Source: an uncultured Candidatus Saccharibacteria bacterium
GTDB taxonomy: Bacteria > Patescibacteriota > Minisyncoccia > Phycocordibacterales > UBA9973
DNA: 64,000 bases
Direction of reading: 5' to 3'
Assembly (NCBI GenBank): GCA_964404925.1
Contig: CAYOLW010000001.1
Coordinates: 105,408-169,407, forward strand
Shown: positions 11,429-51,418 of the stretch, piece after piece
How the letters are laid out: each line of letters opens with the position of its first letter
How positions within the stretch are numbered: position 1 is the stretch's first letter
Translations under genes and position numbers: made by a program
Notes under the pieces: model-generated
Told to the model about the DNA's origin: nothing
The model's input: only the letters and a program-made list of their open reading frames with translations
Databases searched by the model: none

Positions 11429-11537
11429 GCCCAGACTAAAGGGGACTTGCAATTTTTTCTAACCTATAGTAGATTACTTGCGTGCACATAGAGTCCTTGA
11501 GACTCTTTTAATTTACATACACATACACAAACACAGA

Positions 11538-11957
11538 ATGCCAACAATTAATCAATTAGTCAGAAAAAGCCGCAAGGCACCAAAAGGTAAAGACAAGACT
11601 GTGGCTTTAACTCGCGGATTTAACCTGCTTAAGAACAAGCCGGTTTATTACTCTTCACCATTTAAAAGAGGTGTTTGTACCAAAGTTACAACTACCACTC
11701 CAAAAAAGCCTAACTCTGCTCTCCGAAAGATTGCTCGTGTACGATTAACTAACGGTATGGAAGTTACTGCTTATATTCCAGGTGAAGGACACAACCTACA
11801 GGAACACTCAGTGGTTATGCTTCGAGGAGGTCGTGTTAAAGACTTGATTGGAGTACGTTATCACATCGTTCGTGGTGTATTAGATACCCAAGGTGTAGAA
11901 AAACGACGACAAGGACGATCTCTATACGGTAACAAGAAACCAAAAGATAAAAAATAA
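11538..11957 (+). CDS. rpsL: 30S ribosomal protein S12 with a short basic C-terminal tail
   Basis: [10 protein letters not shown]...[10 protein letters not shown]...[14 protein letters not shown] is canonical S12. Confidence 0.95.
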
Positions 11958-11963
11958 AATTAT

Positions 11964-12434
11964 ATGCGACGTAAAGTAAAAAATCGAAATAAAGTAAATC
12001 CAGACTTCGTTTACAACTCACCAAAGCTTGAGAAGTTTATCAACTACATGATGATTGCTGGCAAGAAGGAAACTGCTCGCAAGATCGTTTATGGAGCTTT
12101 TGAAGTAATCAAAGAAAAGACTGGTAATCCAAATCCTCTAGAAGTTTTTGACCTAGCAATGAAAAACGCTGGCCCCCTCACAGAAGTACGATCCAAGCGT
12201 ATCGGTGGTGCAAACTACCAGGTACCCCGAGAAGTACGTGCTGAACGCAGACTTGCGCTCGCTATGCGATGGATTCGTGATGCTGCTCGCGGCAAGAAGG
12301 GAAGTCCAATGCATATCAAACTAGCTGACGAATTAATTGCTGCATCTAAGAACGAAGGTTCTGCTGTGAAGAAGAAAGACGATACTCACAAGATGGCAGA
12401 TGCCAACAAAGCCTTCGCCCACTTCGCTTGGTAA
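11964..12434 (+). CDS. rpsG: 30S ribosomal protein S7
   Basis: Follows rpsL and shows the S7 consensus (…DPVY.S..L.KFIN..M..GKK..A..IVY.A). Confidence 0.95.
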   Translation: MRRKVKNRNKVNPDFVYNSPKLEKFINYMMIAGKKETARKIVYGAFEVIKEKTGNPNPLEVFDLAMKNAGPLTEVRSKRIGGANYQVPREVRAERRLALAMRWIRDAARGKKGSPMHIKLADELIAASKNEGSAVKKKDDTHKMADANKAFAHFAW

Positions 12435-12436
12435 TT

Positions 12437-12508
12437 GAAACATTCAAAAGCCCTGTTGTTTTTCTCGGGTCCTCGGGTCAATTCTAGAGACCACTCGAAA
12501 AACAACAG
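12437..12508 (+). terminator. Hairpin terminator after rpsG that shares the conserved loop motif (CAATTCTAGAGACCA) with the rplK terminator
   Basis: The stem is aaaagccctgttgtttttctcgggt / accactcgaaaaacaacagggctttttt, followed by a T-run. Confidence 0.6.
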
Positions 12509-12526
12509 GGCTTTTTTCTTTGCTAG

Positions 12527-12555
12527 TTCATTTTGTTTGCAAAAAGTAGCTTTGT
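12527..12555 (+). promoter_or_regulatory. Sigma70-like promoter candidate for fusA (TTGCAA -17- TATATT), followed by a small hairpin and T-run (12562-12586) that could act as an attenuator
   Basis: Hexamers with 17-bp spacing, about 65 nt upstream of the fusA ATG. Confidence 0.45.
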
Positions 12556-12619
12556 AGGTTATATTGCACTTAGCGCTAGGACGCGCTTTTTTATTAGTTG
12601 TTATTAATTTTAATTATAT

Positions 12620-14770
12620 ATGGAAAGAGATTATCCACTAGAGAAAGTTAGAAATTTCGGGATTATTGCACACATCGATGCTGGTAAGACTACCACTACC
12701 GAGCGCGTGCTTTTTTATACAGGTGTGTCACATAAAATAGGTGAAGTTCACGATGGTGAAACCACTACCGACTGGATGGAACAGGAGCGAGAGAGAGGTA
12801 TCACTATTACCTCCGCTGCGGTAACCTGTTTCTGGACACCAACTTATGCTGCGCCGACAGATAAGAAATTGAAACATCGTTTCAACATCATCGATACTCC
12901 TGGGCACATTGACTTTACTGTTGAGGTAAAGCGTTCACTTCGCGTACTTGACGGTGCGGTTGTTGTGTTTGACGGTGTGGCTGGTGTAGAACCTCAGTCT
13001 GAAACCAACTGGCGTTATGCTGATGAAGCTAATGTTCCACGTATTTGTTTTATCAACAAGCTCGACCGAACAGGCGCGTCCTTTGAACACTCATATAAAA
13101 CGATCTTAGATCGTCTAACCAAAAAAGCAGTTCGTTTACAAATACCTATTGGACTTGAAGATAAACACGAAGGTGTTATTGATCTTTTGAAAATGAAGGC
13201 CTTCTATTTCGAAGGAGATATGGGTAACCAAGTTCTTGAAAAAGATATTCCAGAAGAATACAAAAAAGAAGCAGAAGGTTATCACGCAGAACTTATTGAA
13301 AAGATTGTTGAGCAAGATGATGCTTTAATGACTGAATACCTAGAAGGTATTGTGCCAAGCGCAGATACTCTTAAAAAAGTATTGCGTAAAGCTGTAATTG
13401 CTAACAATATTTTCCCAGTTTTTGCTGGTAGCGCTCTTAAAAACAAGGGAGTGCAGTTAGTGCTTGATGCTGTTGTAGACTACCTACCGGCACCAACTGA
13501 TATTCCACCTATCCCTGGTATTGACCCGAACACAGAAGAACCAACAGTTCGTAAAGCCTCAGATGCAGAACCTTTCTCAGCACTTGCTTTCAAGGTTGCT
13601 ACCGATCCATTCGTAGGACAGATTATTTTCTTCCGAGTATATTCTGGTTCTCTTTCTGCTGGAAGTTATATTTATAACCCCCGAACTAGAAACAAAGAAA
13701 GAATTGGACGTATTCTGCGAATGCACGCTAATGATCGAGAAGAAGTAAAGAAAGTATATGCAGGAGAAATTGCAGCTGCTGTAGGACTTAAAGACACCAT
13801 TACTTCTGATACTATTTGTGATGAAAATGCACCAGTAGAATTGAACAGAATAGTTTTCCCAGAGCCTGTTATTTCTTTGCGTATTGAACCAAAGACAAAA
13901 GCTGACCAAGAAAAAATGGGTATGGCACTTAACCGCCTTGCTCAAGAAGACCCAACCTTTAGAGTTACAACTGATCAAGAAACAGGGGAGACAATCATCG
14001 CAGGTATGGGAGAACTACACCTTGAAATTATCGTTGATCGTCTGAAGCGCGAGTTTACAGTAGAAGCAAATGTTGGTAAGCCACAGGTTGCATACCGAGA
14101 AACTATTAACGGAAACTCTGAAACTGAAGGTAAATACATCAAACAGTCTGGTGGACGTGGTAACTACGGTCATGTGAAGATTAAGGTTAAGCCAATGGTT
14201 GCTTTAACCAAAGAAGAAATCGAAGACCTGCCAAAGAACACCAAGCGATCTGAAGGATTCGAATTCATCAACAGTATCAAAGGAGGTGCTATTCCTCAGG
14301 AATATATTGCCCCTTGTGAAAAAGGCTTCAAAGAAGGACTTGATCGAGGTATCTTGGCTGGATTTAAAATGGTTAATGTTTCAGTAGAACTTTGGGACGG
14401 ATCTTTCCACGAAGTGGACTCCAACGAAATGGCTTTCAAAATCGCAGCTTCTATGGCTATCCAAGATGCATGTCGTGCTGCTCGTCCAGTAATACTTGAA
14501 CCGATGATGAAGGTTGAAGTAGTAACTCCAGATAAATTCATGGGTGATGTTACAGGAAACTTGTCATCTAAACGTGGACTTATCGAAGGTATGGAAGACC
14601 GAGGAATGAATAAGGTTGTTAAGGCTGTAGTACCATTATCTGAAATGTTCGGTTACATGACAGGCTTGCGTTCTATGACCGAAGGACGTGCGTCTTTCAC
14701 AATGGAATTCCTAAGGTATGATATCGTGCCTCAAAACGTAGCTGACACTATAATTGCAGCTAGAAAGTAA
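12620..14770 (+). CDS. fusA: Translation elongation factor G
   Basis: [25 protein letters not shown] and full-length EF-G domains across 716 aa. Confidence 0.95.
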
Positions 14771-21730: not shown

Positions 21731-22924
21731 ATGGCAGAAGAATTTAAAAGAGATAAGCCACACGTAAACGTAGGTACCATCGGTCACGTTGACCATGGAA
21801 AGACCACTTTAACTGCGGCTATTTTGAATTGTCTTAATTTGGCAGGTAACACTGTTCGAATGAAGAGTGTTGACCAAATCGACGGTGCTCCAGAAGAAAA
21901 AGCTCGTGGTATCACCATTAACATTTCCCACAACGAGTACGAAACAGCTGCTCGCCACTATGCTCACATTGATGCTCCTGGTCACGCTGACTACATCAAG
22001 AACATGATCACCGGTGCTGCTCAGATGGACGGTGCTATCCTTGTGGTGGCTGCTACTGACGGTGCTATGCCTCAGACTCGTGAACACGTTCTTTTGGCAA
22101 AACAAGTTGGTGTGCCAAAAATCATTGTTTTCCTTAACAAATGTGACATGGTTGACGACAAAGACATGATCGACCTTGTTGAAGAAGAAATCCGTGAACT
22201 CCTTACAAAACAAGGCTTTGATGGTGCAGCTTGCCCGGTTATCCGTGGTTCTGCTCTTAAGGGTCTTGAAGCTTCAGACGCTTCAGATGAATGGGCAAAG
22301 AAGATTCTTGAACTTACAAATGCTCTTGATACTTACATCCCAGTTCCAGAACGCGATACTGCAAAGCCATTCTTGATGCCTGTAGAAGACATCTTCTCAA
22401 TCGAAGGCCGCGGTACAGTTGTTACTGGTAAAATCGAAAGAGGTATCGTAAAGGTTGGTGAAGAAATCGAAATCGTGGGTGTTAAAGCAACTGCGAAGAC
22501 CACTGTTACTGGTATTGAAATGTTCAACAAGAACCTTCAAGAAGGTATGGCTGGAGACAACGCTGGTATATTGCTACGAGGTCTTAAGAAAGACGACATC
22601 ACTCGAGGACAGGTTCTTGCAAAGCCAGGTACTGTTACTCCTCATGATAGCTTTACTGCTGAAGTTTACGTTCTAAAGAAGGAAGAGGGAGGTCGTCACA
22701 CACCATTCTTCAAGGGTTACAAGCCTCAATTCTACATCCGAACCACTGACGTAACTGGAGAAGTTGTACTAGAAGAAGGCACAGAAATGGTTATGCCAGG
22801 AGATACAGTTAAGATAACTGTAACATTGGTTACTCCAGTTGCCCTAGAAGAACAACAGAGATTTGCTATCCGAGAAGGAGGTAAGACTGTAGGTGCTGGT
22901 GTTGTAACAAAGATATTGAAATAA
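21731..22924 (+). CDS. tuf: Translation elongation factor Tu
   Basis: [26 protein letters not shown] and full-length EF-Tu across 397 aa. Confidence 0.97.
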
Positions 22925-22942: not shown

Positions 22943-23305
22943 ATGGCGAAAGAAGCGACAAATAAAAAGTCCAAGACTGAACCAAAGAAAAAGGACGATC
23001 GTGTGGTGCTACGTATACGAGTGCGAGCTTATGAGAGTAAAATTCTCGACGCATCAGTCAAGCAGATCATTGATACTGCTATTCGTCACGACGCTACTGT
23101 CTTGGGCCCAGTTCCACTACCAACTGAAATTAAGAAATACACTGTGAACCGCGCTTCTTTTGTCTACAAGAACGCTCGTGAACAGTTCGAAATACGAGTC
23201 CACAAAAGACTTATTGACATAGTTAATCCAAATCCAAAAACTGTTGAAGCGCTAACCAATCTTTCTCTCCCTTCAGGAGTTGATATTGATGTAAAGATGC
23301 TCTAG
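22943..23305 (+). CDS. rpsJ: 30S ribosomal protein S10 with a short basic N-terminal extension
   Basis: The [23 protein letters not shown]... core matches S10. Confidence 0.93.
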
Positions 23306-23324
23306 TTTGGAGAATTAGAAAATC

Positions 23325-23933
23325 ATGAAATTCATTCTGGGAACAAAAGAAGAAATGACCGAATACTTTACCGAAGATGGTAAGGTAGTTCCGGTAACGG
23401 TTGTCGTAACTGGTCCGCACATCGTGACTCAGGTCAAGACAAAGGCAAAGGACGGCTACGACGCTGTGCAGGTTGGTTTCGGTACTCGAAATGCTAAAAA
23501 AATTTCCAAGGCTGTAAAAGGTCACCTTAAAGATTTAGGTAGTTTCCGATATTTGCGTGAATTTACAGCAAATAGCGAACACAAAGTTGGAGACACTTTA
23601 AATCCTAGTGAAGTTTTTGCTGCAGGGGAGAAGGTAACAATATCTGGTACCTCAAAAGGTAAAGGATTCCAAGGTGTTGTAAAACGTCATGGTTTTAAAG
23701 GAGGACCTCGAACTCACGGACAGAAACACTCTGAACGAGAACCAGGATCTATTGGTGGCGGTCTCCGTACACACGTACCAAAAGGTATGCGTATGGCTGG
23801 TCGCATGGGTAGTGATCGAATCACAGAAAAGAACAAAGAAATTGTAGCAATTGATACTGAACAAAATGTTATCTTAATTAAGGGTGCGCTACCAGGTCGC
23901 CGCGGAACCCTGCTTGAAATCTGCGCAAAATAA
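23325..23933 (+). CDS. rplC: 50S ribosomal protein L3
   Basis: GTKEEMTEYFTEDGKVVPVTVV and GKGFQGVVKRHGF are L3 motifs. Confidence 0.95.
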   Translation: MKFILGTKEEMTEYFTEDGKVVPVTVVVTGPHIVTQVKTKAKDGYDAVQVGFGTRNAKKISKAVKGHLKDLGSFRYLREFTANSEHKVGDTLNPSEVFAAGEKVTISGTSKGKGFQGVVKRHGFKGGPRTHGQKHSEREPGSIGGGLRTHVPKGMRMAGRMGSDRITEKNKEIVAIDTEQNVILIKGALPGRRGTLLEICAK

Positions 23934-23934
23934 A

Positions 23935-24597
23935 ATGGAAGCAAAAATCTACAATCAAAAAGGTGAAGTGGCTGGTAGTATTAAATTACCTGAAAGAGTT
24001 TTCGCTGCAAAGTGGCGCTCTGACTTAGTACACCAGGTAGTCGAAGGCATGCGTTCAAACAAGCGTGCTGGAACAGCTGACACTAAAGACCGAGGTGAGG
24101 TTTCTGGTGGTGGTAAAAAGCCTTGGAAACAAAAAGGAACTGGACGAGCACGACATGGATCTACTAGAAGTCCAATCTGGGTTGGTGGTGGTGTGGCACA
24201 CGGTCCTTTGTCTGACAAAAACTACAAGAAAAAGATATCTAAGAAAATGCGTGCACAAGCTTTGTTCTCAGTACTTTCTCGCAAGTTCAAAGAAGGTGAA
24301 ATACTATTCGTTGATAAACTTGCAGGAGCTAAAATCAAAACTAAGGATGCTATCATTGTGACTGAAAAACTAGGCAAGGCATCAGGTTGGAACGACTTAG
24401 CTAAGGCTAAGAAGGCAAAGGCACTTATGGCCTTAGATGGACGCAACGAAATTGCTGAGAAGAGTTACCGCAATATCCCTGCATTTGATATAGTCTTCCT
24501 GAAGAATTTGAACCCACTTGAAGTTTTGAATCATAAATATTTAATAATCGAAAATCCAGAAGAATCAATTAAATTCTTGGATACTCGAGGAATATAA
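23935..24597 (+). CDS. rplD: 50S ribosomal protein L4
   Basis: The start is the ATG at 23935 (MEAKIYNQKGE...). The KPWKQKGTGRAR motif is present. Confidence 0.93.
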   Translation: MEAKIYNQKGEVAGSIKLPERVFAAKWRSDLVHQVVEGMRSNKRAGTADTKDRGEVSGGGKKPWKQKGTGRARHGSTRSPIWVGGGVAHGPLSDKNYKKKISKKMRAQALFSVLSRKFKEGEILFVDKLAGAKIKTKDAIIVTEKLGKASGWNDLAKAKKAKALMALDGRNEIAEKSYRNIPAFDIVFLKNLNPLEVLNHKYLIIENPEESIKFLDTRGI

Positions 24598-24602
24598 AAA
24601 TT

Positions 24603-24920
24603 ATGGCTAAAGAAAAGAAAACAAAAGAAAAAAAAGAAGCAAAGAAAGAGCTATCAAAGCCAATCATTTCTCCTCGAGTTACTGAAAAAGCTTCAATGTT
24701 AGCAGAAGGTAATATATATACTTTTAATGTTGAAAAGGGTGCTACTAAAAATGAAGTGGCTAAAGCAATTTTTGCTTCATTTAAAGTAAAGCCAGTCCGA
24801 GTAAATATATTAGCTATTGAAAAGAAAACTGTTCGTTTCCGAGGTAGACCAGGAGTTCGTGGAGGAGGTCGCAAAGCTCTGGTTTATTTGAAAAAAGGAG
24901 ATAAAATCGAATTTGTATAA
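24603..24920 (+). CDS. rplW: 50S ribosomal protein L23
   Basis: Assigned by operon position and an L23-like core (...IISPRVTEKASMLAEGNIYTFNV...). Confidence 0.9.
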   Translation: MAKEKKTKEKKEAKKELSKPIISPRVTEKASMLAEGNIYTFNVEKGATKNEVAKAIFASFKVKPVRVNILAIEKKTVRFRGRPGVRGGGRKALVYLKKGDKIEFV

Positions 24921-24929
24921 TACAAGACC

Positions 24930-25778
24930 ATGAAGAAATATAAACCAACAAGTAAATCTCGTCGAAACATGACTACCGTGACATATCGCGGAGTCATCAC
25001 TACATCAACCCCAGAAAAGTCCCTTACCTATGGTAGGAAGCGATCTGTCGGACGTAACAGCTTTGGCCGTATTACTACACGCCACAAGGGTTCTGGACAC
25101 AAGAAACTATATCGTGCTGTAGACTTTTTATACGACAAGAAAAACATTCCAGCTAAAATAAAAAGTGTTGAGTATGATCCAAACCGAACTGCTTTTATCG
25201 GATTAGCTGTTTACCAAGATGGAGAAAAGAGGTATGCAATAGTACCAAAATCAGTTAAACCAGGTGATACATTTATCGTTTCTGAGAAAGCTGATTTGAA
25301 TCCTGGAAATCGAATGATGTTGAAAAACATCCCAGTTGGTACATTTGTATACAACATCGAACTTAAACCGAATGGTGGTGCCAAAATAGCCCGATCTGCT
25401 GGTATTGCAGCTCAGGTGGTAGCTAATGCTGACGGTTACACTAATTTAAAAATGCCTTCTACCGAAGTTCGTAAGGTAAGTGAAAACTGCTACGCATCTA
25501 TCGGTAATGTATCAAACGAAGAACATCACCTTGAGAACCTTGGTAAAGCTGGACGCAGTCGCTGGAAAGGTATCCGCCCAACAGTTCGTGGTACTGCCAT
25601 GAACCCAGTTGACCACCCATATGGTGGTGGTGAAGGACGACAAGGCCGAGGTACCAAGCGACCGAAGACTCTATGGGGTAAAGTAACTGGTGGACGCAAG
25701 ACCAGAACTCCAAAGAAATACTCAAATGTATTTATCGTATCTCGAAGAAAGGTTGGGAAAGGAAAAAAATCAAAATAA
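24930..25778 (+). CDS. rplB: 50S ribosomal protein L2
   Basis: GRNSFGRITTRHKGSGHK and GTAMNPVDHPYGGGEGR are L2 motifs. Confidence 0.96.
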   Translation: MKKYKPTSKSRRNMTTVTYRGVITTSTPEKSLTYGRKRSVGRNSFGRITTRHKGSGHKKLYRAVDFLYDKKNIPAKIKSVEYDPNRTAFIGLAVYQDGEKRYAIVPKSVKPGDTFIVSEKADLNPGNRMMLKNIPVGTFVYNIELKPNGGAKIARSAGIAAQVVANADGYTNLKMPSTEVRKVSENCYASIGNVSNEEHHLENLGKAGRSRWKGIRPTVRGTAMNPVDHPYGGGEGRQGRGTKRPKTLWGKVTGGRKTRTPKKYSNVFIVSRRKVGKGKKSK

Positions 25779-25785
25779 ATAACAA

Positions 25786-25814
25786 TAAAAAATCCCCGAA
25801 AGGGGATTTTTTAT
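25786..25814 (+). terminator. Intrinsic terminator inside the ribosomal cluster, between rplB and rpsS (aaaaaatccccgaaaggggatttttt)
   Basis: A perfect hairpin plus a T-run. Confidence 0.7.
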
Positions 25815-25823
25815 TGTTATCAT

Positions 25824-25852
25824 TTGACATTGATAAAAAATCTGCTAGTATA
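25824..25852 (+). promoter_or_regulatory. Sigma70-like promoter for rpsS-rplV-... (TTGACA -17- TAGTAT; TTGACATTGATAAAAAATCTGCTAGTAT)
   Basis: It shares the TTGACATT...ATCTGCTA(A/G)TAT architecture with the tuf promoter. Confidence 0.55.
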
Positions 25853-25923
25853 GGCAAAAGCTCGGTTAGAGCTTTTTGTTTATCAGTTTTTCTATTACAA
25901 AGGCTGATAACATTAAATAATTT

Positions 25924-26280
25924 ATGACAAGATCAGTTAAAAAAGGACCATACGTAGACGAGAGAGTACTCAAGAAAGTACTAGGCAAAAGCCCGCTTCA
26001 AACCCCACCAATTAAGACTTGGATTCGAGCATGTGTTATATCTCCAGAAATGGTAGGTTTCACTTTTGCTGTTTATAACGGCAAGAATTTTATTGAGGTA
26101 CTAGTAAACGAAGACATGATTGGACACAGACTAGGTGAATTCTCTCCAACCAAGAAGTTTATTAAGCACGGAGGTAAAATGCAGAAAGAATTAGAAGCCA
26201 AGAAGAAAGAGACTGAAATAGCTCAGGCTAAGGCTGCAACTGCGGCTACCACCGGAGCAGCTGGTGCCAAAAAGAAATAA
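25924..26280 (+). CDS. rpsS: 30S ribosomal protein S19 with an Ala/Lys-rich C-terminal extension
   Basis: [12 protein letters not shown]... and NGK.FI.V.V.E.M.GH.LGEF match S19. Confidence 0.93.
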
Positions 26281-26308
26281 TCTCAGAGTTTACCAATAAT
26301 TAACAATC

Positions 26309-26716
26309 ATGAAAGCATTTTTAAAAAATTACAGACAATCACCACGTAAAGTACGCTTAGTTGCAACACTAGTAAAAGGCAAGCCTGTTGCTGATGCTTT
26401 GATTTCTTTGCAAATGCTTACTAAAAGAGCAAGTACTCCTTTGCACAAATTACTACTATCTGCTGTAGCTAACGCTAAGTCACAAGGCCTTGATGTAGAA
26501 AATCTATTCATTAAAGAATTTTCAGTTGACAAAGGAATAGTTATGAAACGCATGATGCCGAGAGCTATGGGCCGTGGTGCTAGAATCAACAAAAGAACTA
26601 GCCACGTTACCGTTGTGTTAGGGGAGCGTGCCGTAAAAACAAAAAAAGTAAAAGCAGAAAAAGCCCCAAAGTCGAAAGTTGTAACCAAAAAGCCAAAAGC
26701 AAAAGCTAATAAATAA
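26309..26716 (+). CDS. rplV: 50S ribosomal protein L22 with a Lys-rich C-terminal tail
   Basis: Assigned by operon position and an L22-like core (...QSPRKVRLVA..VKGK.V..AL..L). Confidence 0.92.
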   Translation: MKAFLKNYRQSPRKVRLVATLVKGKPVADALISLQMLTKRASTPLHKLLLSAVANAKSQGLDVENLFIKEFSVDKGIVMKRMMPRAMGRGARINKRTSHVTVVLGERAVKTKKVKAEKAPKSKVVTKKPKAKANK

Positions 26717-26717
26717 T

Positions 26718-27383
26718 ATGTCTAAAATCGTTCATCCTTATGCACACAGATTGGTAATCCTAAGAGACTGGAAAAGTCGCTGGTTTGCTGACCCAAAGAA
26801 ATACCCAACCTATTTAAAGGCTGATGTATTACTACGAGAATGGCTAGAAAAGAAACTACGAGGTTTGTACGTATCTTCTATCGAAATCGAACGAAATCGT
26901 AAGATGACACGTTATATCCTAAAGACTTCACGACCAGGTCTTCTAATCGGAAGATCAGGTGAGGGCGCAACTAAACTCAAAGAAGAAATTGTAAAAAAGA
27001 TGGCAAAGCTTGGACTACCTAAGATTGAAGATTTTAAGCTTGAAGTAGTAGAAGTAACCAACCCTGAATCTGATGCATCTATCGTTGCTTATATGATTGC
27101 TGAAGGTTTAGAAAAAAGAATTACCTACCGACGTGTTATGAAACAAACTGTAGAGAAGGTGATGGCTGCTCCAGGAGTACAAGGAGTACGTATAGTTCTA
27201 TCAGGACGTCTAGGTGGTGCTGAAATTGCTCGAACCGAAGAATTGAAGCGTGGTTCTATCCCTCTTCAGACTTTCCGTGCAGATATCGATTTCAAGCGTG
27301 AAAGAGCAACCCTTTCCTACGGTACCATTGGTATCAAGGTTTGGATTTATCGAGGTAAAATCTTTGCTAAAAAAGAAGCATAA
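26718..27383 (+). CDS. rpsC: 30S ribosomal protein S3
   Basis: It has a KH domain and the GRLGGAEIARTE motif. Confidence 0.95.
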   Translation: MSKIVHPYAHRLVILRDWKSRWFADPKKYPTYLKADVLLREWLEKKLRGLYVSSIEIERNRKMTRYILKTSRPGLLIGRSGEGATKLKEEIVKKMAKLGLPKIEDFKLEVVEVTNPESDASIVAYMIAEGLEKRITYRRVMKQTVEKVMAAPGVQGVRIVLSGRLGGAEIARTEELKRGSIPLQTFRADIDFKRERATLSYGTIGIKVWIYRGKIFAKKEA

Positions 27384-27392
27384 TAAAATCCC

Positions 27393-27818
27393 ATGTTAAT
27401 ACCTAAAAAAGTAAAATTCAGAAAGTGGCAGTCTGGCAGGTCCAAGAACAAGCTAACGACTCCAGAGACCCGAGGAACTAAAATTTCTTTTGGATCTTTT
27501 GGATTGAAAGCTGAATCTGGTGCTCGTGTTAAATCTAATCAGATTGAGTCTGCACGTAAGGCTATGTCTCGACAGTTAACTAAAACTGGTAAGTATTGGA
27601 TTCGCATTTTCCCTGATCGACCTTATACTCAGAAAGCTGCACAGGTAGGTATGGGTAAGGGTAAAGGTGATCCACAAGGATATGTTTTTGAAGTACAACC
27701 TGGACGCGTTATTTTTGAAGTAGATGGCGTAGACGAATCAGTTGCTCGCGAAGCATTGCGCAAAGCAGGCAGCAAGTTACCAGTTAAGACTCGAGTTGTT
27801 GCTCGCGCTAATAAATAA
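27393..27818 (+). CDS. rplP: 50S ribosomal protein L16
   Basis: MLIPKKVKFRK... and ARKAMSR.L are L16 motifs. Confidence 0.95.
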   Translation: MLIPKKVKFRKWQSGRSKNKLTTPETRGTKISFGSFGLKAESGARVKSNQIESARKAMSRQLTKTGKYWIRIFPDRPYTQKAAQVGMGKGKGDPQGYVFEVQPGRVIFEVDGVDESVAREALRKAGSKLPVKTRVVARANK

Positions 27819-27823
27819 TTTAT

Positions 27824-28084
27824 ATGCCAAAGAAGAAAGTTGAAAAAAAAGAAGTTAGTGTAAAGGGTACTCTAGAAGGAACTGTGTTTTCTGCTAAAAT
27901 GCAGAAAACAATCGTTGTAGAAGTATCCAGATTCGTGAAGCATCCAAAATACGGAAAGTACTACAAAATCAGCAAGAAATATAAGGTGCACGATGAAAAT
28001 AATAAATTCAAGGTTGGTGACAAAGTTTCCATTGTTCCAACTCGCCCGATTTCAAAAGATAAAAAGTTTAAAGTTTTAGATTAA
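27824..28084 (+). CDS. rpsQ: 30S ribosomal protein S17. It directly follows rplP with no rpmC (L29) gene in between.
   Basis: GTVFSAKMQKTIVVEV.R...HPKYGK is an S17 motif. The rplP-rpsQ gap is only 5 nt. Confidence 0.92.
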   Translation: MPKKKVEKKEVSVKGTLEGTVFSAKMQKTIVVEVSRFVKHPKYGKYYKISKKYKVHDENNKFKVGDKVSIVPTRPISKDKKFKVLD

Positions 28085-28088
28085 TAAC

Positions 28089-28460
28089 ATGATACAACAC
28101 GGAACATTAGTAAAAATAGCAGATAACTCAGGTGGAACATTGGCCCAGGTTTTCAAGGTCCTTGGTTCTTCCAAGAAGCGTTATGCATCAATCGGTGAGA
28201 AGGTTATTATTGCTGTAAAAGTTGCAACTCCTCGCAAGGCAGTAAAGAAGAAGGATGTGCATCAAGCTGTGGTAGTAAGGACTCGTCAGGCATATCGCCG
28301 ACGCGATGGTTCATATATTCGTTTTGATGACAATGCGGTGGTAATACTCGAAAAAGGTAAACTTGACCCTAAGGCAGGACGTGTATTCGGACCAATGCCT
28401 CGAGAACTTTCTGAAATGGGTTACCAGAAAATTATTTCTCTAGCTCCAGAAGTTATTTAA
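28089..28460 (+). CDS. rplN: 50S ribosomal protein L14
   Basis: MIQHGTLVKIADNSGG and AVVVRT are L14 motifs. Confidence 0.96.
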   Translation: MIQHGTLVKIADNSGGTLAQVFKVLGSSKKRYASIGEKVIIAVKVATPRKAVKKKDVHQAVVVRTRQAYRRRDGSYIRFDDNAVVILEKGKLDPKAGRVFGPMPRELSEMGYQKIISLAPEVI

Positions 28461-28475
28461 TTTCAATTCAAAATC

Positions 28476-28781
28476 ATGAAACTAAAAAAAGGAGACAATG
28501 TAATAGTGATAGCTGGTCGCGATAATGGCAAAAAGGGAACAATCGCACGAGTTTTATCCAAAGAAAATAAAGTTGTAATCGAAGGTATCAACTTGGTCAA
28601 GAAGCATCAGAAACCACGAAAAGGAGGTGAGAAGGGCAGTACTATTACTATAGCTATGCCTATCAATGCTTCTAATGTAATGGCACTTGATCCAAAAGGA
28701 GGAAAACGTACACGAGTAGGTTATAAGACTGTTGGCGATAAAAAGGTTCGAATCGCCCGAAAAAGCGGACAGGAAATTTAA
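28476..28781 (+). CDS. rplX: 50S ribosomal protein L24
   Basis: MKLKKGDNVIVIAGRDNGKKGTI contains a KOW motif. Confidence 0.95.
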   Translation: MKLKKGDNVIVIAGRDNGKKGTIARVLSKENKVVIEGINLVKKHQKPRKGGEKGSTITIAMPINASNVMALDPKGGKRTRVGYKTVGDKKVRIARKSGQEI

Positions 28782-28790
28782 GCTAAAAAT

Positions 28791-29351
28791 ATGGCATACA
28801 AAACTGTAAAAGAAAAAGAACAAATGGCGTACGAAGTGTTGAAAGGCACTTTTGGCTACAAGAACAAAATGGCAGCACCTCGATTGTCCAAGGTTGTTGT
28901 AAACGTTGGTACTGGTACCTACATGAAAAAGGACAAGAATAAGAATACCGACATCGCAGCTCGCTTGGCCAAAATAACCGGACAAAAGCCAGCTTTGCGT
29001 GGAGCCAAGAAATCTATTGCTACCTTCAAAATTCGCCAGGGTGACCCTGTAGGTATAACTATTACTCTACGTGGTTCTCGCATGTATGGATTCTTGGAGA
29101 AGCTTTTCAATGTGGCATTACCTCGAACTAAAGACTTCCGTGGAGTGAACAAATCAGGAGTTGATAATATTGGTAATTTCACAATGGGTATCAAAGAACA
29201 CACAATTTTCCCAGAAACTGCTGATGAAGATATCAAAGACGTTTTCGGTCTTGCTATCACTATTGTATCTACCGCTAAAAATAAAAAAGAAGCTACAAAT
29301 TTCTTTGAACTCCTTGGTGTTCCGTTTAAAAAAGAAGAAGGAAAGAGATAG
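28791..29351 (+). CDS. rplE: 50S ribosomal protein L5
   Basis: Assigned by operon position and an L5-like core (...PRLSKVVVNVG..., FNVALPRTKDFRG). Confidence 0.93.
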   Translation: MAYKTVKEKEQMAYEVLKGTFGYKNKMAAPRLSKVVVNVGTGTYMKKDKNKNTDIAARLAKITGQKPALRGAKKSIATFKIRQGDPVGITITLRGSRMYGFLEKLFNVALPRTKDFRGVNKSGVDNIGNFTMGIKEHTIFPETADEDIKDVFGLAITIVSTAKNKKEATNFFELLGVPFKKEEGKR

Positions 29352-29357
29352 TTTTAT

Positions 29358-29408
29358 CCGCACACTTATTTTACTGAGACTCTCGGTGTTAGTAAAATAA
29401 GTGTGCGG
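29358..29408 (+). other. Strong 16-bp stem-loop between rplE and rpsN (ccgcacacttatttta...taaaataagtgtgcgg). It has no T-run, so it may be an RNA stability, processing or protein-binding element.
   Basis: A perfect inverted repeat with a 19-nt loop, seen directly in the sequence. Confidence 0.5.
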
Positions 29409-29409
29409 A

Positions 29410-29438
29410 TTGACATTATAAAAGTTTTTAGTTAGTAT
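29410..29438 (+). promoter_or_regulatory. Sigma70-like promoter for rpsN-rpsH-... (TTGACA -17- TAGTAT)
   Basis: TTGACATTATAAAAGTTTTTAGTTAGTATGG has the same TTGACATT...TAGTAT architecture as the rpsS promoter. Confidence 0.5.
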
Positions 29439-29557
29439 GGGGCGCAGGGTAGGAGGTTTGGATTGAATCCGCTTTTCTCCTTAAGTCTTTATAGATTTAA
29501 GAAAAGAAGCGAGATATTCCCAAGCAAAGTACCCAGATTATTTTTTAATATTTATTT

Positions 29558-29743
29558 ATGGCAAAAACATCAGTCATAGCACGATCACAAAAGAAACCGA
29601 AATTTAGTACACGAGCTAAGAATCGTTGTTTTCGTTGCGGACGCGGTAAGGCATTTATGAGAGATTTCGATTTGTGTCGTATCTGTTTCCGTGAATTAGC
29701 CAATGAAGGCAATTTGCCTGGCGTTAGGAAGTCAAGTTGGTAA
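29558..29743 (+). CDS. rpsN: 30S ribosomal protein S14, type Z (zinc-binding, 61 aa)
   Basis: CFRCGR...CRICFRE are the four Cys of the zinc ribbon. Confidence 0.93.
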
Positions 29744-29768
29744 ATCTACTATTCAATAGAAAAAACAT

Positions 29769-30158
29769 ATGGATCAAATAGCAAACATGATAATAGCCAT
29801 CAAGAATGCCAGCCTAAGAGGCAAGACTGATGTTTCTGTACCTTACTCAAAACTGAAGGAGGCAATAGCTGCTTGCTTGGTGAAAGAAGGTTACTTAACT
29901 TCTGCAACTAAAAAAGTAAAGAAAGGCAAGAACGAATTGGAATTAGGTTTAGTTTATTCTGAAGCTGGTAAGCCAAAAGTAGCCAACGTAGAACGTATTT
30001 CCAAGCAGTCACGACGAGTTTATTTCGGTACAAAAGACATTAACAAGGTTCGTGGTGGCACAGGTCTTTTGGTTCTTTCAACACCAAAAGGTATCCTAAG
30101 TGGCGCCAACGCACGTCGCGAACAAGTTGGTGGAGAAGCATTATTCAAAATTTGGTAA
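29769..30158 (+). CDS. rpsH: 30S ribosomal protein S8
   Basis: MDQIANMIIAIKNA and the C-terminus LSTPKGILSG...GGE.L match S8. Confidence 0.95.
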   Translation: MDQIANMIIAIKNASLRGKTDVSVPYSKLKEAIAACLVKEGYLTSATKKVKKGKNELELGLVYSEAGKPKVANVERISKQSRRVYFGTKDINKVRGGTGLLVLSTPKGILSGANARREQVGGEALFKIW

Positions 30159-30164
30159 AATATC

Positions 30165-30698
30165 ATGTCAAGAATAGGAAAAAAAGAAATTTTAATACCA
30201 AAGACAGTCAAGATCACTTTTGATTCTGGCGTTATGACTGTAACCGGTTCAAAAGGTGCAGTGAAGAAAATCTTCCGAGATGATATTGCTATCACTATGG
30301 ACGGAGACAAGGTGGTTTTAACTCCAAAGCGTAACGATAAATTTTCAAAAGCTTTGTGGGGTACTTACGCTTCTCATATCATGAATATGATCACTGGCGT
30401 AGAAACACCATATCAAAAGAAATTAATTTTAGAAGGTGTCGGATTTAAATCAGAAGTAAAAGGCAAGGACTTGAATCTAGCTTTAGGTTTCTCTCACCCT
30501 GTTATAGTTGCTATCCCAGAAGGACTTACTGTTACAGCTGAAAAGAACTTGATAACTGTTACTGGTATCGACAAAGAATTAGTTGGTTCATTTACTGCTG
30601 CACTCAGAGCTCGCAAGAAGCCAGAACCATATAAGGGTAAAGGTTTCCGTTACGATGATGAGGTTATTCGTCGCAAGCAGGGTAAGAAAACTGCATAA
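30165..30698 (+). CDS. rplF: 50S ribosomal protein L6
   Basis: MSRIGKK.I.IP..V and the two-domain L6 architecture. Confidence 0.95.
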   Translation: MSRIGKKEILIPKTVKITFDSGVMTVTGSKGAVKKIFRDDIAITMDGDKVVLTPKRNDKFSKALWGTYASHIMNMITGVETPYQKKLILEGVGFKSEVKGKDLNLALGFSHPVIVAIPEGLTVTAEKNLITVTGIDKELVGSFTAALRARKKPEPYKGKGFRYDDEVIRRKQGKKTA

Positions 30699-30708
30699 TT
30701 AAAAAGCC

Positions 30709-31050
30709 ATGCAAAACAAACAAGATAAAAGAATAAGACTAAAGAAAAAAATTCGATCTAAGATTAATGTATCTGGACTCCGATTACGTCTTTCAGTTTT
30801 CCGATCAAACAAATTTATTTATGCACAGATTATTGATGACCAAAAGGGTGTTACTTTGGTTTCTGCAAATGACGTAAAGGCAAGTACTGGTACTAAACTA
30901 GAAAGAGCCAAAATGGTAGGCAAGACTATAGCTGAAGCTGCTTTAGCAAAAAAGATAAACGAAGTTGTTTTTGATCGTAATGGTTTTAAATACACAGGCC
31001 GAGTAAAATTAGTAGCCGAAGCAGCTCGCGAGGCAGGATTAAAATTTTAA
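30709..31050 (+). CDS. rplR: 50S ribosomal protein L18
   Basis: LRLSVFRSNKFIYAQIIDD matches L18. Confidence 0.93.
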   Translation: MQNKQDKRIRLKKKIRSKINVSGLRLRLSVFRSNKFIYAQIIDDQKGVTLVSANDVKASTGTKLERAKMVGKTIAEAALAKKINEVVFDRNGFKYTGRVKLVAEAAREAGLKF

Positions 31051-31059
31051 TAAGAAATT

Positions 31060-31614
31060 ATGGATAAAAGAGAAGGAAAAAAAAATAATCACAAATCATC
31101 CTTTGCTAGACCAAAGCCTGAGTTCGATCAGAAGATTGTAAGTATCAGACGTGTAACTCGTGTTGTGGCTGGTGGACGACGTTTCTCATTTTCAGTTGCA
31201 CTAGTTGCAGGGGACAGGAAAGGTGCTGTGGGCTTGGGCTTGGGTAAAGCAGGTGATACTTCTCTGGCTATTAACAAAGCTTTAAGAGACGCTAAGAAAA
31301 GAATGGTTAAACTTAGCTTGAACAAGAACCAATCTATTCCTCACCAAGTTTTTGCTAAATTCGGAAGTTCTAAGGTTATGATTATGCCGAATAAAGGTAA
31401 AGGTTTAGTGGCTGGTACTGTTGTTCGCGACATTTTGAAGTTAGCTGGTGTAAAAGATGCAACTGCTAAAGTTCTCGGCGGAACCAAGAATCGACTAAAC
31501 AACTCTAAGGCAGTTATGGCAGCTTTGTCTGAAATATCCAGTCCCTACCAAAAAGTTACCAAATTACCTGAGGATAGTATTAAAACACTAGCTCAGAGTG
31601 AAGCAAATAATTAA
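31060..31614 (+). CDS. rpsE: 30S ribosomal protein S5
   Basis: IRRVTRVVAGGRRFSFSVALVAGD..G.VG.G.GKA matches S5. Confidence 0.95.
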   Translation: MDKREGKKNNHKSSFARPKPEFDQKIVSIRRVTRVVAGGRRFSFSVALVAGDRKGAVGLGLGKAGDTSLAINKALRDAKKRMVKLSLNKNQSIPHQVFAKFGSSKVMIMPNKGKGLVAGTVVRDILKLAGVKDATAKVLGGTKNRLNNSKAVMAALSEISSPYQKVTKLPEDSIKTLAQSEANN

Positions 31615-31626
31615 TTTTGAAGTGTC

Positions 31627-31932
31627 ATGCAAATCAATACATTAAAACGAGTACATAAGAACAGAAAAGACCGAGTAATCGGTCGTGGTGGTAAACACGC
31701 TAAAACATCTGGACGTGGAGGTAAAGGTCAGACTGCTCGTGCTGGTAACAAGAGACGACCAGAGTTACGTGATATAATTAAGAAGCTGCCAAAGCTTCGA
31801 GGTTATGCTTTTAATTCTCGAATTAAAGCCGTAGAAATAAAAGAAAAAGACCTAGCTAAAAAAGACGAAAAATTCAGCGAGATTCGCAAGCGAACAGGCA
31901 TGAAGGGTGGCAAGATTGTTATCAGGAAGTAA
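31627..31932 (+). CDS. rplO: 50S ribosomal protein L15, short form of 101 aa. There is no L30 gene between rpsE and rplO.
   Basis: It has the Gly/Arg-rich N-terminus (GRGGKHAKTSGRGGKGQTARAG) of L15, but the C-terminal half is truncated. The gap to rpsE is 12 nt. Confidence 0.85.
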   Translation: MQINTLKRVHKNRKDRVIGRGGKHAKTSGRGGKGQTARAGNKRRPELRDIIKKLPKLRGYAFNSRIKAVEIKEKDLAKKDEKFSEIRKRTGMKGGKIVIRK

Positions 31933-33204
31933 ATGCAAAATTTTTGGAATAAAATTAAATTAGTTTGGGTTGATAAGGGTCTACGATCTAGGGTTTTTGC
32001 TGTGTTAGGTTTTTTAATTATATTCCGTTTATTAGCAGCTATTCCAATTCCAGGAGTAGACACAGCTGCCTTAAATAGATTTTTGAACAATAACCAGTTT
32101 TTCGGAATATTAAACCTTTTCTCTGGTGGTGGATTATCTAACCTTTCAATAATTATGCTTGGTGTTGGTCCATATATTACTGGATCTATCATTATGCAGC
32201 TTCTCACTATTATGGTTCCTTCGCTAAAGCGTATGTACCAAGAAGAAGGCGAACTAGGACGCCGGAAGTTTACTCAATATTCAAGGCTTCTTACTGTGCC
32301 GCTAGCTATTATTCAGGGTTACAGTCTACTCACTGTATTGGGTTCACAAGGTATTTTAGTAGACCTGACTGCTTTCGAAAAAATAGTTAACCTGATTATC
32401 GTTGTTGCTGGTTCTATTCTAATAATGTGGATTGGAGAATTGATGTCAGAGTTCGGTATCGGTAATGGTCTATCTATGATAATCTTTGCAGGTATTGTTT
32501 CTCAAATCCCTACAGAGATCGGTCAATTAGTTTATACTTTTGATGTTTCCCAGATCCCACTATACATTGCCTTTGCTGTTGTCGGTATATTGGTTGTAGC
32601 TGGAGTGGTTGTGGTTACTGAGGCTGAACGACCTATACCAGTCACATACGCTAAAAGAGTTCGTGGTAATAAAGTTTATGGAGGAGGTTCTACCTATCTA
32701 CCACTACGTGTAAACCAGGCTGGAGTTATACCAATTATTTTCGCACTTTCAATATTACTGTTCCCAACCATGATTGGTAATGCATTGTCTGGGGCAACCA
32801 ATCCATTTGTTGCTAAAGTCGCTACTGCATTAGCTAACTTCTCACAAACATCAGTACTTTATGGTGTACTATACTTCGTGCTAGTTTTCTTGTTTACATA
32901 TTTTTATACTGCTGTTACCTTTGATCCACACGCATTGGCTGAGAACCTACAGAAAAATGGTGCATTTATTCCAGGTATCAGACCAGGTGTTTCAACTGAA
33001 ACTTATATTTCAAAAGTGCTAGGACGTATTACTCTACTCGGTGCACTCTTCCTCGGATTTATCGCTGTTTTACCTATAATTATGCAGAGTATCACTGGTA
33101 TTACAGCTTTAGCACTTGGTGGTACAGCTTTACTTATCGTCGTGTCTGTATTACTTGATTTGATTAAAAAGGTTGATGCTCAGGTATCAATGCGAGAATA
33201 CTAA
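31933..33204 (+). CDS. secY: Preprotein translocase subunit SecY
   Basis: A 423-aa protein with 10 TM helices. It follows rplO directly, as in the spc operon. Confidence 0.95.
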   Translation: MQNFWNKIKLVWVDKGLRSRVFAVLGFLIIFRLLAAIPIPGVDTAALNRFLNNNQFFGILNLFSGGGLSNLSIIMLGVGPYITGSIIMQLLTIMVPSLKRMYQEEGELGRRKFTQYSRLLTVPLAIIQGYSLLTVLGSQGILVDLTAFEKIVNLIIVVAGSILIMWIGELMSEFGIGNGLSMIIFAGIVSQIPTEIGQLVYTFDVSQIPLYIAFAVVGILVVAGVVVVTEAERPIPVTYAKRVRGNKVYGGGSTYLPLRVNQAGVIPIIFALSILLFPTMIGNALSGATNPFVAKVATALANFSQTSVLYGVLYFVLVFLFTYFYTAVTFDPHALAENLQKNGAFIPGIRPGVSTETYISKVLGRITLLGALFLGFIAVLPIIMQSITGITALALGGTALLIVVSVLLDLIKKVDAQVSMREY

Positions 33205-33216
33205 AAGAATTTAAAA

Positions 33217-33247
33217 CAAAAACCCCGACATAATGTCGGGGTTTTTG
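33217..33247. terminator. Bidirectional intrinsic terminator between secY (+) and cmk (-) (aaaaaccccgacataatgtcggggttttt)
   Basis: A perfect hairpin flanked by an A-run and a T-run. Confidence 0.7.
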
Positions 33248-33248
33248 T

Positions 33249-33827
33249 TTAGTTCTTAAGCCAATTTTTGTATTCAGTTAGTATTTTTTCTGCGGTTTGT
33301 TCGATACTGTTAGCGTGAGTATCTATAACTAAATTATAGTTCTGTAAGTCTGTATTATTGATTTGATATAAATCCCAGTAACGTTTTTGCTCACTTTCAA
33401 ATCTCTTGACCATATTTGCATAAACTTCTTCTGAGGTGCCGCTTTGTTCACTTTTTTTACGCATCTCGTCTTCAGATAAACTTCGGATAATTCTCTCCTT
33501 GGCAATTTCTCGGGGTAGGGTAAGGTATACCTTAAAAGACTCTGGTATCCAATGGTAAGCAGTACGTGAGTCTATGACCACATCATGCGCATTTCGCATG
33601 CCACGAAGCTTGTCATCGGTCATAACATCTATTTGGGGGTCTGTTTCGGCTCGAATGTTTAGTTCGGTTACAGTGATACCCAAATCCATACCTACTTGTC
33701 TAAAAAAATCTCCAGATGAGAAGTGTTGATAGCCAAGTTCTTTAGCTATTCTTTTGGCAGTAGTAGACTTTCCGCTACCGAGCCACCCATTAATAGTTAT
33801 TATTGTCTTCTTGTTTTGCTGCTCCAT
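33249..33827 (-). CDS. cmk: Archaeal-type cytidylate (CMP) kinase
   Basis: TINGWLGSGKST (P-loop), then SSGDFFR and a short (192 aa) architecture that resembles the archaeal/short CMK family rather than bacterial Cmk. Confidence 0.65.
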   Translation of the reverse strand: MEQQNKKTIITINGWLGSGKSTTAKRIAKELGYQHFSSGDFFRQVGMDLGITVTELNIRAETDPQIDVMTDDKLRGMRNAHDVVIDSRTAYHWIPESFKVYLTLPREIAKERIIRSLSEDEMRKKSEQSGTSEEVYANMVKRFESEQKRYWDLYQINNTDLQNYNLVIDTHANSIEQTAEKILTEYKNWLKN

Positions 33828-45583: not shown

Positions 45584-46342
45584 CTAGCTCATTTCCTGAA
45601 TAATTTGATCCATCATGAGTGCTGCCGGGAGGCGAGCGACATCAAGCGGTACAAAGTAATCTCCTTCAACCTTGCTTGCGTCCGCTGATACGGATATACC
45701 TGCAGCATCAATCATTTCTTTATCATTTAGATTGTCTCCAATAGCCAGCACTTCACCCTCGGCCAAGCCCAGGTAGTTCCTGTATGCAGAGAGGCCCACT
45801 GCTTTGTTCTGAATTCCTTTGACCCCGATGTCATATGCTTCGCCGTTCCAGATGGCATACAGGCGGTCATTCTCGGCGACGATGTTTTCAATCTCTGGGA
45901 CTCTATCTGTACAATGGATGGTGATTATTAATTCTTTGGGTTCAAAGCCTTTCACGTTTTCGTGTCTGGACTCGATGCCGCGTAATTTCAAAAAAGTTTC
46001 TTGCAAATGGTCAAAGCTGTTCACGTGCTGGATTATTTCTCCGCGGTGCCAGGTGGCGCTGCCGTTCTCGTATGTGAGACTGGTAAAGGGAAGTATGTCT
46101 CGGAAAACTTCTTGCAGCATATACAACCCGCGTCCAGAATTGATATTGATCATGAACCCTAGTTCTTTTAATTTCTTGATCTGCTCAATCTGCTCGGGGG
46201 CGATGTGTTTCGTCTCGAGTGTTGTAATGTTATTTGATTGTTTTATATTCGTTCCACGGGGGACCAATACTCCATCTACATCGAAAACTATTAGTTTAAT
46301 ATTTTTCAAAACATCCTTCGTTAGTTCCTCAATTGGTTTCAT
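45584..46342 (-). CDS. HAD-IIB (Cof-like) hydrolase
   Basis: LIVFDVDGVL (motif I) and GDNLNDKEM (motif IV) are present. Confidence 0.7.
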   Translation of the reverse strand: MKPIEELTKDVLKNIKLIVFDVDGVLVPRGTNIKQSNNITTLETKHIAPEQIEQIKKLKELGFMININSGRGLYMLQEVFRDILPFTSLTYENGSATWHRGEIIQHVNSFDHLQETFLKLRGIESRHENVKGFEPKELIITIHCTDRVPEIENIVAENDRLYAIWNGEAYDIGVKGIQNKAVGLSAYRNYLGLAEGEVLAIGDNLNDKEMIDAAGISVSADASKVEGDYFVPLDVARLPAALMMDQIIQEMS

Positions 46343-46376
46343 GAGTTAATTCTAAGCTTTTTATTCCTAGCGTCAA

Positions 46377-47570: not shown

Positions 47571-47574
47571 ATTT

Positions 47575-48063: not shown

Positions 48064-48239
48064 TTTTTTGTTGTGGACTTAGTAGCGAAAAGTGCGAACC
48101 AAATGAGAGCCTTTATAAATCAATGGTCAGAGTTCTTTAAACATAACAAACCAAACTTTCAAACAACCTAAAACCTTTATTTTAAAACATTTTATTGCTT
48201 ATTAGATATCACAATAAGAGTATTGAATACTATCTATTA

Positions 48240-49517: not shown

Positions 49518-49532
49518 AACGCCTAAATCTTA

Positions 49533-50933: not shown

Positions 50934-50998
50934 AATTGCTATTCTAACATTTTTAAGATTAAAAAATAAGTCTAAAAATGGTATAATTAGGTGTATAA

Positions 50999-51370: not shown

Positions 51371-51418
51371 GAAAATCTAGGGAATTATAAATATATCCCT
51401 TGATATGCTATAGGTAGT

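Follow-up and report, generated by a model that had tools for sequence, protein, structure and literature searches.

The window analysed here, a 64-kb stretch of DNA with 0 N bases, contains on its plus strand a cluster of ribosomal-protein genes in which the usual slot of rpmC, the gene for L29 (uL29), is empty and in which rplW encodes an L23 (uL23) with a lysine-rich N-terminal tail. Three genes of the cluster are central to this report: rplW (24603-24920), which encodes a protein of 105 amino acids (aa); rplP (27393-27818), whose product L16 has 141 aa and matches NCBIfam rplP_bact with 154 bits; and rpsQ (27824-28084), whose product S17 has 86 aa and matches Pfam Ribosomal_S17 with E = 5e-30. 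The slot in which rpmC is usually found is the L16/S17 junction at 27819-27823. The uL29 protein is universally conserved on the ribosome and forms part of the tunnel-exit site at which nascent-chain factors dock.

Judged from its ribosomal proteins, the window organism is a Nomurabacteria-like member of the Parcubacteria, within the Candidate Phyla Radiation (CPR/Patescibacteria). The best matches of its L16 were metagenome-assembled genomes of Nomurabacteria/Paceibacterota type, with 71-90% identity among the best 80 loci from GTDB species representatives; a few of the matched records carry other titles and appear to be mislabelled. Trees of concatenated ribosomal proteins placed the window within the Nomurabacteria/Paceibacterota group, and the CPR/Patescibacteria membership proposed in the initial annotation is borne out by these trees and by the L16 matches. 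Loci for comparison came from three sources, namely GTDB species selected by L16, metagenome loci and loci from a protein index. The metagenome scan found no relative closer to the window (best L23 identity 64%) and supplied other lineages that lack L29.

The L16/S17 junction

The rplP stop codon TAA ends at 27818 and is followed by TTTAT and then by the ATG of rpsQ at 27824. The spacer of 5 nt leaves no space for rpmC, as had been noted from the letters of the window. The comparison of this slot was based on 79 related GTDB species whose retrieved locus includes rplP as well as rpsQ. An L29 open reading frame (ORF) occupies the slot in 76 of them; relatives that contain L29 have there a gap of 133-367 nt with an ORF of 59-80 aa bearing the motif RFKAEGSKSKNVKE...IARILTE, and the ORF of one relative (L003) was matched to Pfam Ribosomal_L29 (PF00831). 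The remaining three species have a slot without L29, with gaps of 5 nt in the sister of the window (L002), 22 nt in L011 and 9 nt in L069. The absence of L29 from its conserved position is therefore as uncommon as the initial annotation supposed.

A hidden Markov model (HMM) of the L29 of this clade, built from ~75 sequences, had no hit when the window was translated in six frames (best E = 4.6, compared with 1e-24 to 1e-30 for positive controls) and had no match in 172 kb of other loci lacking L29. The L29 of E. coli, used as a phmmer query, likewise had no match in the six-frame window. A fusion of L29 to L16 or S17 is ruled out because both proteins are of normal length and the N-terminus of S17 is like that of the clade: its tail has the ordinary length seen in relatives that contain L29, and is no L29 remnant. 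A pseudogene remnant at the junction is also ruled out, the intergenic space being only 5 nt.

The same junction was found, identical, in an independent Logan assembly (SRR12762285) and in L001. Junctions of 4-5 nt between L16 and S17 occur also in L002, L163 (JACCDR01), L165 (CAYYQM01) and L174 (JGI Ga0172278_1764), which come from different samples and assemblies. The positions 27818-27824 hold 0 N bases and the L16 and S17 genes are intact. As a junction of 4-5 nt recurs in no fewer than five further assemblies from this clade, an assembly error that removed the gene, the outcome by which the absence was to be refuted, is excluded. The ribosomal proteins of the clade mates are up to about 13-15% diverged from those of the window. 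Since mates so diverged keep the junction, the deletion must be old, inherited and tolerated. Thus rpmC was removed from its slot by a clean, inherited deletion that left rplP and rpsQ intact.

The deletion in the window clade is not the only one. Further junctions without L29 were present among the metagenome and protein-index loci, in a clade formed by L069, L128 and L138, in L091, in L166 and L167, and in L168, and for every lineage lacking L29 the nearest neighbours contain it. Neighbour-joining (NJ) trees were calculated for 109 taxa and 1633 columns with 100 bootstraps, and the L29 state was mapped on them by Fitch parsimony, which required 6 changes in 97 of the 100 bootstrapped trees and 5 in the remaining 3. 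Support was 100% for the window clade and likewise for the L069 clade, and the grouping of separate loss lineages with one another was unsupported. From the Fitch changes together with the L29-containing nearest neighbours, we conclude that uL29 was lost from the slot about six separate times in this group, as estimated from these trees, though only ~4% of its species are without L29.

The N-terminal tail of uL23

When the lengths of neighbouring proteins were compared, the L23 of the window, with its 105 aa, exceeded the median of 91, a feature that the initial annotation does not mention. The excess of about 13-15 residues is a lysine-rich N-terminal segment, MAKEKKTKEKKEAKKELSKP, encoded roughly at 24603-24662 and lying ahead of the conserved PRVTEK motif; 23 residues precede the motif in the window compared with 7-12 in core relatives that contain L29. 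The rplW ATG lies 5 nt past the stop codon of rplD, there is no ATG, GTG or TTG between it and the motif (Leu17 is encoded by CTA), and the extension is kept in six clade members (P0001-P0006) with a length that varies in frame. Given the single possible start and the conservation in frame, the tail is real coding sequence, and an artefact of ORF calling is ruled out for the window clade. Apparent extensions in four other loci (L003, L012, L026 and L079) were artefacts of over-extension to GTG or TTG codons and were corrected before counting. The protein is a member of the family PF00276 with an N-terminal extension, the NCBIfam L23 models matching from residue ~16 onward. In the AlphaFold model, residues 1-17 have a predicted local distance difference test (pLDDT) score below 50 and no predicted secondary structure. 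The Glu of the PRVTEK-type motif is the residue of L23 on which trigger factor docks, so that the residues just upstream of it are in the right neighbourhood.

The tail and the loss of L29 occur together. A tail was present in 9 of the 10 L29-less loci for which L23 is known, with 19-35 residues before the motif, and in 0 of ~66 core loci containing L29. Counted by lineage, 5/6 loss lineages carry a tail compared with 4/74 others (Fisher test, p = 3e-5). In the GTDB sample selected by L16 alone, which is unbiased by L23, the corresponding counts were 2/3 and 0/52 (Fisher test, p = 0.002). The association could also be used to predict: two L23 proteins of the protein index, picked by their lysine-rich tail alone (P0008 and P0106), were both encoded on contigs without L29, and a third (P0055), with an L23 extension that is shorter and less lysine-rich, comes from a locus that kept L29. 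Changes in the length of other proteins near the tunnel exit, L22 and L24, showed no consistent pattern with L29 loss. At the ribosome's surface uL29 adjoins uL23 (PMC6620043).

Other features of the cluster and the window

The remaining genes of the cluster are, in order and all on the plus strand, rpsJ (22943-23305), rplC (23325-23933), rplD (from a probable ATG at 23935 to 24597), then, after rplW, rplB (24930-25778; L2), which closes the first transcription unit; rpsS (25924-26280), rplV (26309-26716) and rpsC (26718-27383) ahead of rplP; rplN (28089-28460), rplX (28476-28781) and rplE (28791-29351) after rpsQ; and finally rpsN (29558-29743; a 61-aa short form with four Cys), rpsH (29769-30158), rplF (30165-30698), rplR (30709-31050), rpsE (31060-31614), rplO (31627-31932; uL15, a short form of 101 aa) and secY (31933-33204), which begins at the base right after the rplO stop. 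The assignments of rpsJ, rplC, rplD, rplB, rpsS, rplV, rpsC, rpsN and the genes from rpsH to rpsE were made from the translations; the orthologues in relatives were called Ribosomal_S10, L3 and L4 for rpsJ, rplC and rplD, and SecY for secY.

The cluster appears to consist of three promoter-led units, from S10 to L2, from S19 to L5 and from S14 to secY. The first break, after rplB and on the plus strand, comprises three elements: a hairpin with a perfect 19-bp palindrome (25779-25820); a promoter-like TTGACA-16-TAGTAT that has a TG upstream (25824-25851); and, ahead of rpsS, a small AGCUC hairpin together with a U run (25856-25876). The second break, after rplE and on the same strand, has a hairpin (29358-29408) followed by a promoter-like TTGACA-17-TAGTAT (29410-29438). 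The promoter-like elements of both breaks are conserved in relatives, and the initial annotation was correct in describing the cluster as split by internal terminators and promoters. Upstream of rpsS the relatives have a conserved TTGACW...TTTGCTAnTAT promoter and, within about 5-10 nt of it, a small hairpin of the form AAGCUC-loop-GAGCUU with a U run; this could serve as an attenuator or as a site for protein binding in the 5' untranslated region. In relatives, L2 and S19 lie between 3 nt and 3.8 kb apart, and other genes have been inserted there. Across the comparison loci (L002-L174) the L2/S19 and L5/S14 junctions vary in size between a few nt and about 4 kb and often hold unrelated genes, for example those for TrmB and a phosphatase, TruD, and a pilin-like protein. 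Both junctions act as hot spots for insertion and divide the S10-spc cluster into its three units.

Between the second promoter and rpsN, a conserved structured leader RNA lies at 29448-29535 on the plus strand. RNAalifold applied to 30 sequences gave two helices around a conserved internal loop, UUUCUCC / AAGAAAA; 12 of the 20 pairs have compensatory changes. In 66 of 81 sources a covariance model located a single copy, on the plus strand, with E = 1e-8 to 1e-21. The alignment made with it (A4) joins the window to homologous sites from 65 further loci; in it, 95.4% of cells are paired, and double changes are seen at 17 of the 20 pairs. For covariation the leader scored 0.60, compared with 0.24 for shuffles (0 of 500 reached the observed score) and 0.07-0.18 for slid controls. 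The leader had no match in Rfam 15, even at E <= 10, and a search of the intergenic regions against Rfam produced no meaningful match, either at the gathering threshold or at E <= 10. We regard it as a candidate autoregulatory leader of ribosomal-protein genes, with S8 or S14 as its possible ligand, and as a candidate for a new ribosomal-protein regulatory element in CPR.

Three further peculiarities of the ribosomal genes had been reported for the window. The first was the absence of L30. The gene rpmD is indeed missing from its slot, with 12 nt between the end of rpsE at 31614 and the start of rplO at 31627, and the L30 of E. coli had no match in the six-frame window. By ORF coordinates, the S5-L15 gaps in relatives do not exceed 76 nt, too little to hold rpmD, and some are negative where the start of the longest ORF overlaps rpsE. 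That the loss of L30 is a published trait of CPR, as the initial annotation had it, agrees with the report that uL30 is absent throughout CPR (Tsurumaki et al. 2022, RNA 28:1041; PMC9297842).

The second was a truncated L15. The protein does have 101 aa and lacks the usual C-terminal part, and to that extent the description stands; the gene is not truncated, however, since the short form is that of the majority of the clade, with 99-106 aa in about 37 of 52 relatives and a form of 144-180 aa in about 13. The N-terminal ~80 residues of the short form are canonical, and the globular C-terminal part of ~60 aa is replaced by ~20 conserved residues ending in ...KGGKIxIK. The NCBIfam model TIGR01071 gave rplO 28.9 bits, where its cutoff is 77.95; residues 4-89 aligned to positions 3-94 of the 144 in the profile (E = 8e-7), and there was no Pfam match (PF00828) at E <= 0.01. 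When a profile of the short form was compared with L15 chains in the PDB, its positions 1-81 corresponded to residues 1-87 of 146 (E = 3e-7). The N-terminal rRNA-binding region of uL15 (GRG...GxGxKGQ) is present, long and short forms align with each other, and the place between rpsE and secY is fixed in all relatives. The precomputed Pfam tables of the relatives carry a dash for the short L15, and marker-gene pipelines are likely to call L15 missing in genomes of the clade.

The third concerned the surroundings of rplK (L11), the last gene of the secE/nusG-rplK unit (5355-5780, plus strand; Pfam Ribosomal_L11_N and Ribosomal_L11). A long hairpin with a U run follows at 5785-5864, between rplK and dcd, with a folding energy of -29.1 kcal/mol (z = -6.0 against shuffles), and it is likely to be a bidirectional terminator for rplK and the convergent dcd. 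The latter, a dCTP deaminase-like gene on the minus strand (5880-6416; Pfam DCD PF22769, E = 3.5e-37), opens a convergent block dcd-folA-thyA. The succession of rplK, terminator and convergent dcd is thus as described, and genes for L1, L10 and L12 do not follow rplK; this is no oddity, though, but conserved synteny, because a relative with a 712-kb contig (L173) shares the arrangement of the window, with secE-nusG-rplK followed by genes for a deaminase, a MazG-like protein, folA, thyA, a DEAD helicase, an M50 peptidase and rpsL. The E. coli proteins L1, L10, L7/L12 and L9 had no match in the six-frame window. The lack of their genes behind rplK carries no information on L10 or L12 themselves; as these are essential, they must be encoded elsewhere in the genome. 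The gene rplA is neither next to rplK nor elsewhere in the 64 kb, and the synteny in L173 is likewise without it; uL1 may be truly absent, as in published uL1-less Parcubacteria. The absence of L30, the short L15 and the context of rplK are, in all, clade-typical or already published.

Between these regions lie rpsL-rpsG-fusA (11478-14770) and tuf (21731-22924), the latter directly ahead of rpsJ. On the other side of the cluster, a cytidylate-kinase-like gene (33249-33827, minus strand) stands between secY and adk; adk, a gene of the amino-acid-kinase family (pyrH-like) and map are found downstream of it. A very strong hairpin at 33214-33250 follows the cytidylate-kinase-like gene, and this gene arrangement is kept in L163, L165, L166 and L174. 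The genes infA, rpmJ, rpsM, rpsK, rpsD, rpoA and rplQ do not follow map within the window.

Other observations were made farther along. A low-GC stretch at ~46000-54900 (31-33%, compared with 38-41% for most of the remaining window) ends at the tmRNA gene ssrA (54417-54812, minus strand), whose end is overlapped by about 70 nt by an ORF of 548 aa (52844-54490) with an N-terminus that by eye is serine-recombinase-like, making it a candidate for such an enzyme. The stretch has the look of a mobile element that inserted at ssrA. ARAGORN identified a tRNA-Ile with anticodon UAU (57721-57795) and two divergent tRNA-Ser genes, one with the normal anticodon GCU (61785-61876, plus strand) and the other with the unusual ACU (61611-61698, minus strand), a call that may be mistaken or may reflect an unusual mode of decoding.

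Interpretation and comparison with known systems

The main question then is how the loss of uL29 and the tail of uL23 are related. The deletion of rpmC is recurrent and inherited in this group, and we consider it probable that the tail compensates for, or permits, the loss of uL29. The positively charged tail would occupy or shield the surface of ribosomal RNA (rRNA) and the docking surface that uL29 vacated, and would be positioned at the uL29 site. Alternatively, the tail may have come first and made uL29 dispensable. This order of tail first and loss second is hinted at by one comparison locus (L145), which has kept L29, whose tail is long and rich in lysine, and which falls beside the L069 clade that lacks L29. 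The broader proposal, that the exit-site docking platform for the signal recognition particle (SRP), trigger factor and SecA was rebuilt several times through a uL23 tail that enabled or compensated the loss, is put forward more tentatively, at somewhat short of an even chance.

Several observations count against this interpretation. That the tail lies at the uL29 site is a proposal based on the adjacency of the two proteins. One locus (L011) has lost L29 from the slot and has no tail, and four outgroup loci that contain L29 (L115, L124, L145 and L170) carry uL23 extensions, so that the tail is neither necessary nor sufficient for the loss. Several of the tail-bearing loci came from searches with the tailed L23 of the window, which introduces an ascertainment bias, and the sample free of this bias is small and includes three loss lineages. 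Lysine-rich tails are, moreover, common on the ribosomal proteins of CPR, the N-terminus of S17 being an example. The trees behind the count of losses are simple NJ trees, and rpmC was searched for within 64 kb of the genome, so that a copy could lie elsewhere.

Most of these observations would also fit a rival explanation, in which uL29 is truly lost and the tail is a coincidental, lineage-specific addition without a functional link. The loss without a tail in L011, the four tails found together with L29, the bias of part of the sample towards tail-bearing L23 and the report by Tsurumaki et al. (2022) of many additions that are specific to CPR and whose role is unknown are all in its favor. 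We nevertheless find coincidence unlikely, because the tail is confined to five of the six loss lineages when these are set against the core relatives that contain L29, the association holds in the sample selected by L16, both forward predictions made from the tail alone were correct, and uL23 and uL29 are neighbours on the ribosome.

Less likely still is relocation in place of loss, with rpmC still functional at some site beyond the window. The search covered about 10% of a typical CPR genome, the genes rplJ and rplL must also lie outside the window, which implies that ribosomal genes are dispersed in this genome, and relocation in the L011 lineage would fit the lack of both slot L29 and tail there. 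Yet no homologue of L29 was found in the window or in the 172 kb of loci from L29-less relatives, and six clean deletions, with spacers of 4-22 nt, would demand six prior duplications or relocations. True loss of rpmC is documented in other CPR and in endosymbionts, and the coupling to a change in uL23 would be hard to explain if L29 were still made. We infer that rpmC is probably absent genome-wide. The idea that a gene of ~200 nt at 27.82 kb was removed by faulty assembly or binning has practically nothing left to recommend it, given a window without N bases, flanking genes that are intact and of normal length, the identical junction in the independent Logan assembly and the like junctions in L002, L163, L165 and L174 from different samples and assemblers.

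If compensation or permission by the tail is the right explanation, the uL23 tail predicts the dispensability of uL29. About six losses, usually accompanied by the same kind of change in uL23, amount to a natural replicated experiment on the removal of a core part of the ribosome, and provide a concrete hypothesis on why uL29 can be dispensed with that is testable by structure or genetics. There is a practical consequence as well. Since L29 is sporadically missing, and the short uL15 is unseen by Pfam and does not reach the cutoff of NCBIfam, a reliance on L29 or L15 can bias estimates of completeness and trees of concatenated markers for such organisms.

In the ribosomes of mitochondria and microsporidia, extensions of neighbouring proteins compensate for lost components, as has been demonstrated structurally. 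The logic proposed here is alike, with the basic tail of a neighbour filling or shielding a vacated rRNA surface, whereas the link in the present case consists of a phylogenetic correlation together with known adjacency.

The loss of rpmC has also been described in endosymbionts with tiny genomes, namely Ca. Uzinura, Ca. Walczuchella and Ca. Fokinia (bioRxiv 10.1101/2021.01.31.429008). According to that preprint, L29 is among the large-subunit proteins that are located at the surface and often lost, and Ca. Fokinia is without both L29 and L30, as is the window. These endosymbionts differ in having insect or ciliate hosts and extremely reduced genomes, and the passages of the preprint consulted describe no accompanying change in uL23. 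The CPR-wide absence of uL30 and a uL1-less group of Parcubacteria, 'OD1-L1' (Brown et al. 2015, cited in PMC5220378 and PMC9297842), resemble the window in that no rpmD lies between rpsE and rplO and that no rplA follows rplK or is found elsewhere in the window. A difference from the uL1-less group is that the rplA of the window organism could lie elsewhere in the genome, and Nomurabacteria are not named in the texts consulted.

A close precedent is the loss of uL29 in some Peregrinibacteria, another CPR lineage in which the gene for a universal large-subunit protein is missing (PMC9297842). The same study described a C-terminally shortened uL15 and an N-terminal addition to uL23, each in some CPR, and left it unclear whether added regions compensate for missing parts. 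Lineage-specific loss of uL29, a short uL15 and an N-terminal addition to uL23 were, in other words, already known. In contrast to the Peregrinibacteria, the bacteria studied here are Nomurabacteria-like Parcubacteria in which the loss is sporadic (~4% of species), amounts to about six events and is coupled to the tail of uL23. What is new is therefore the sporadic and repeated loss of uL29 in Nomurabacteria-like bacteria, by a clean and inherited deletion, and its tight, predictive association with the uL23 tail.

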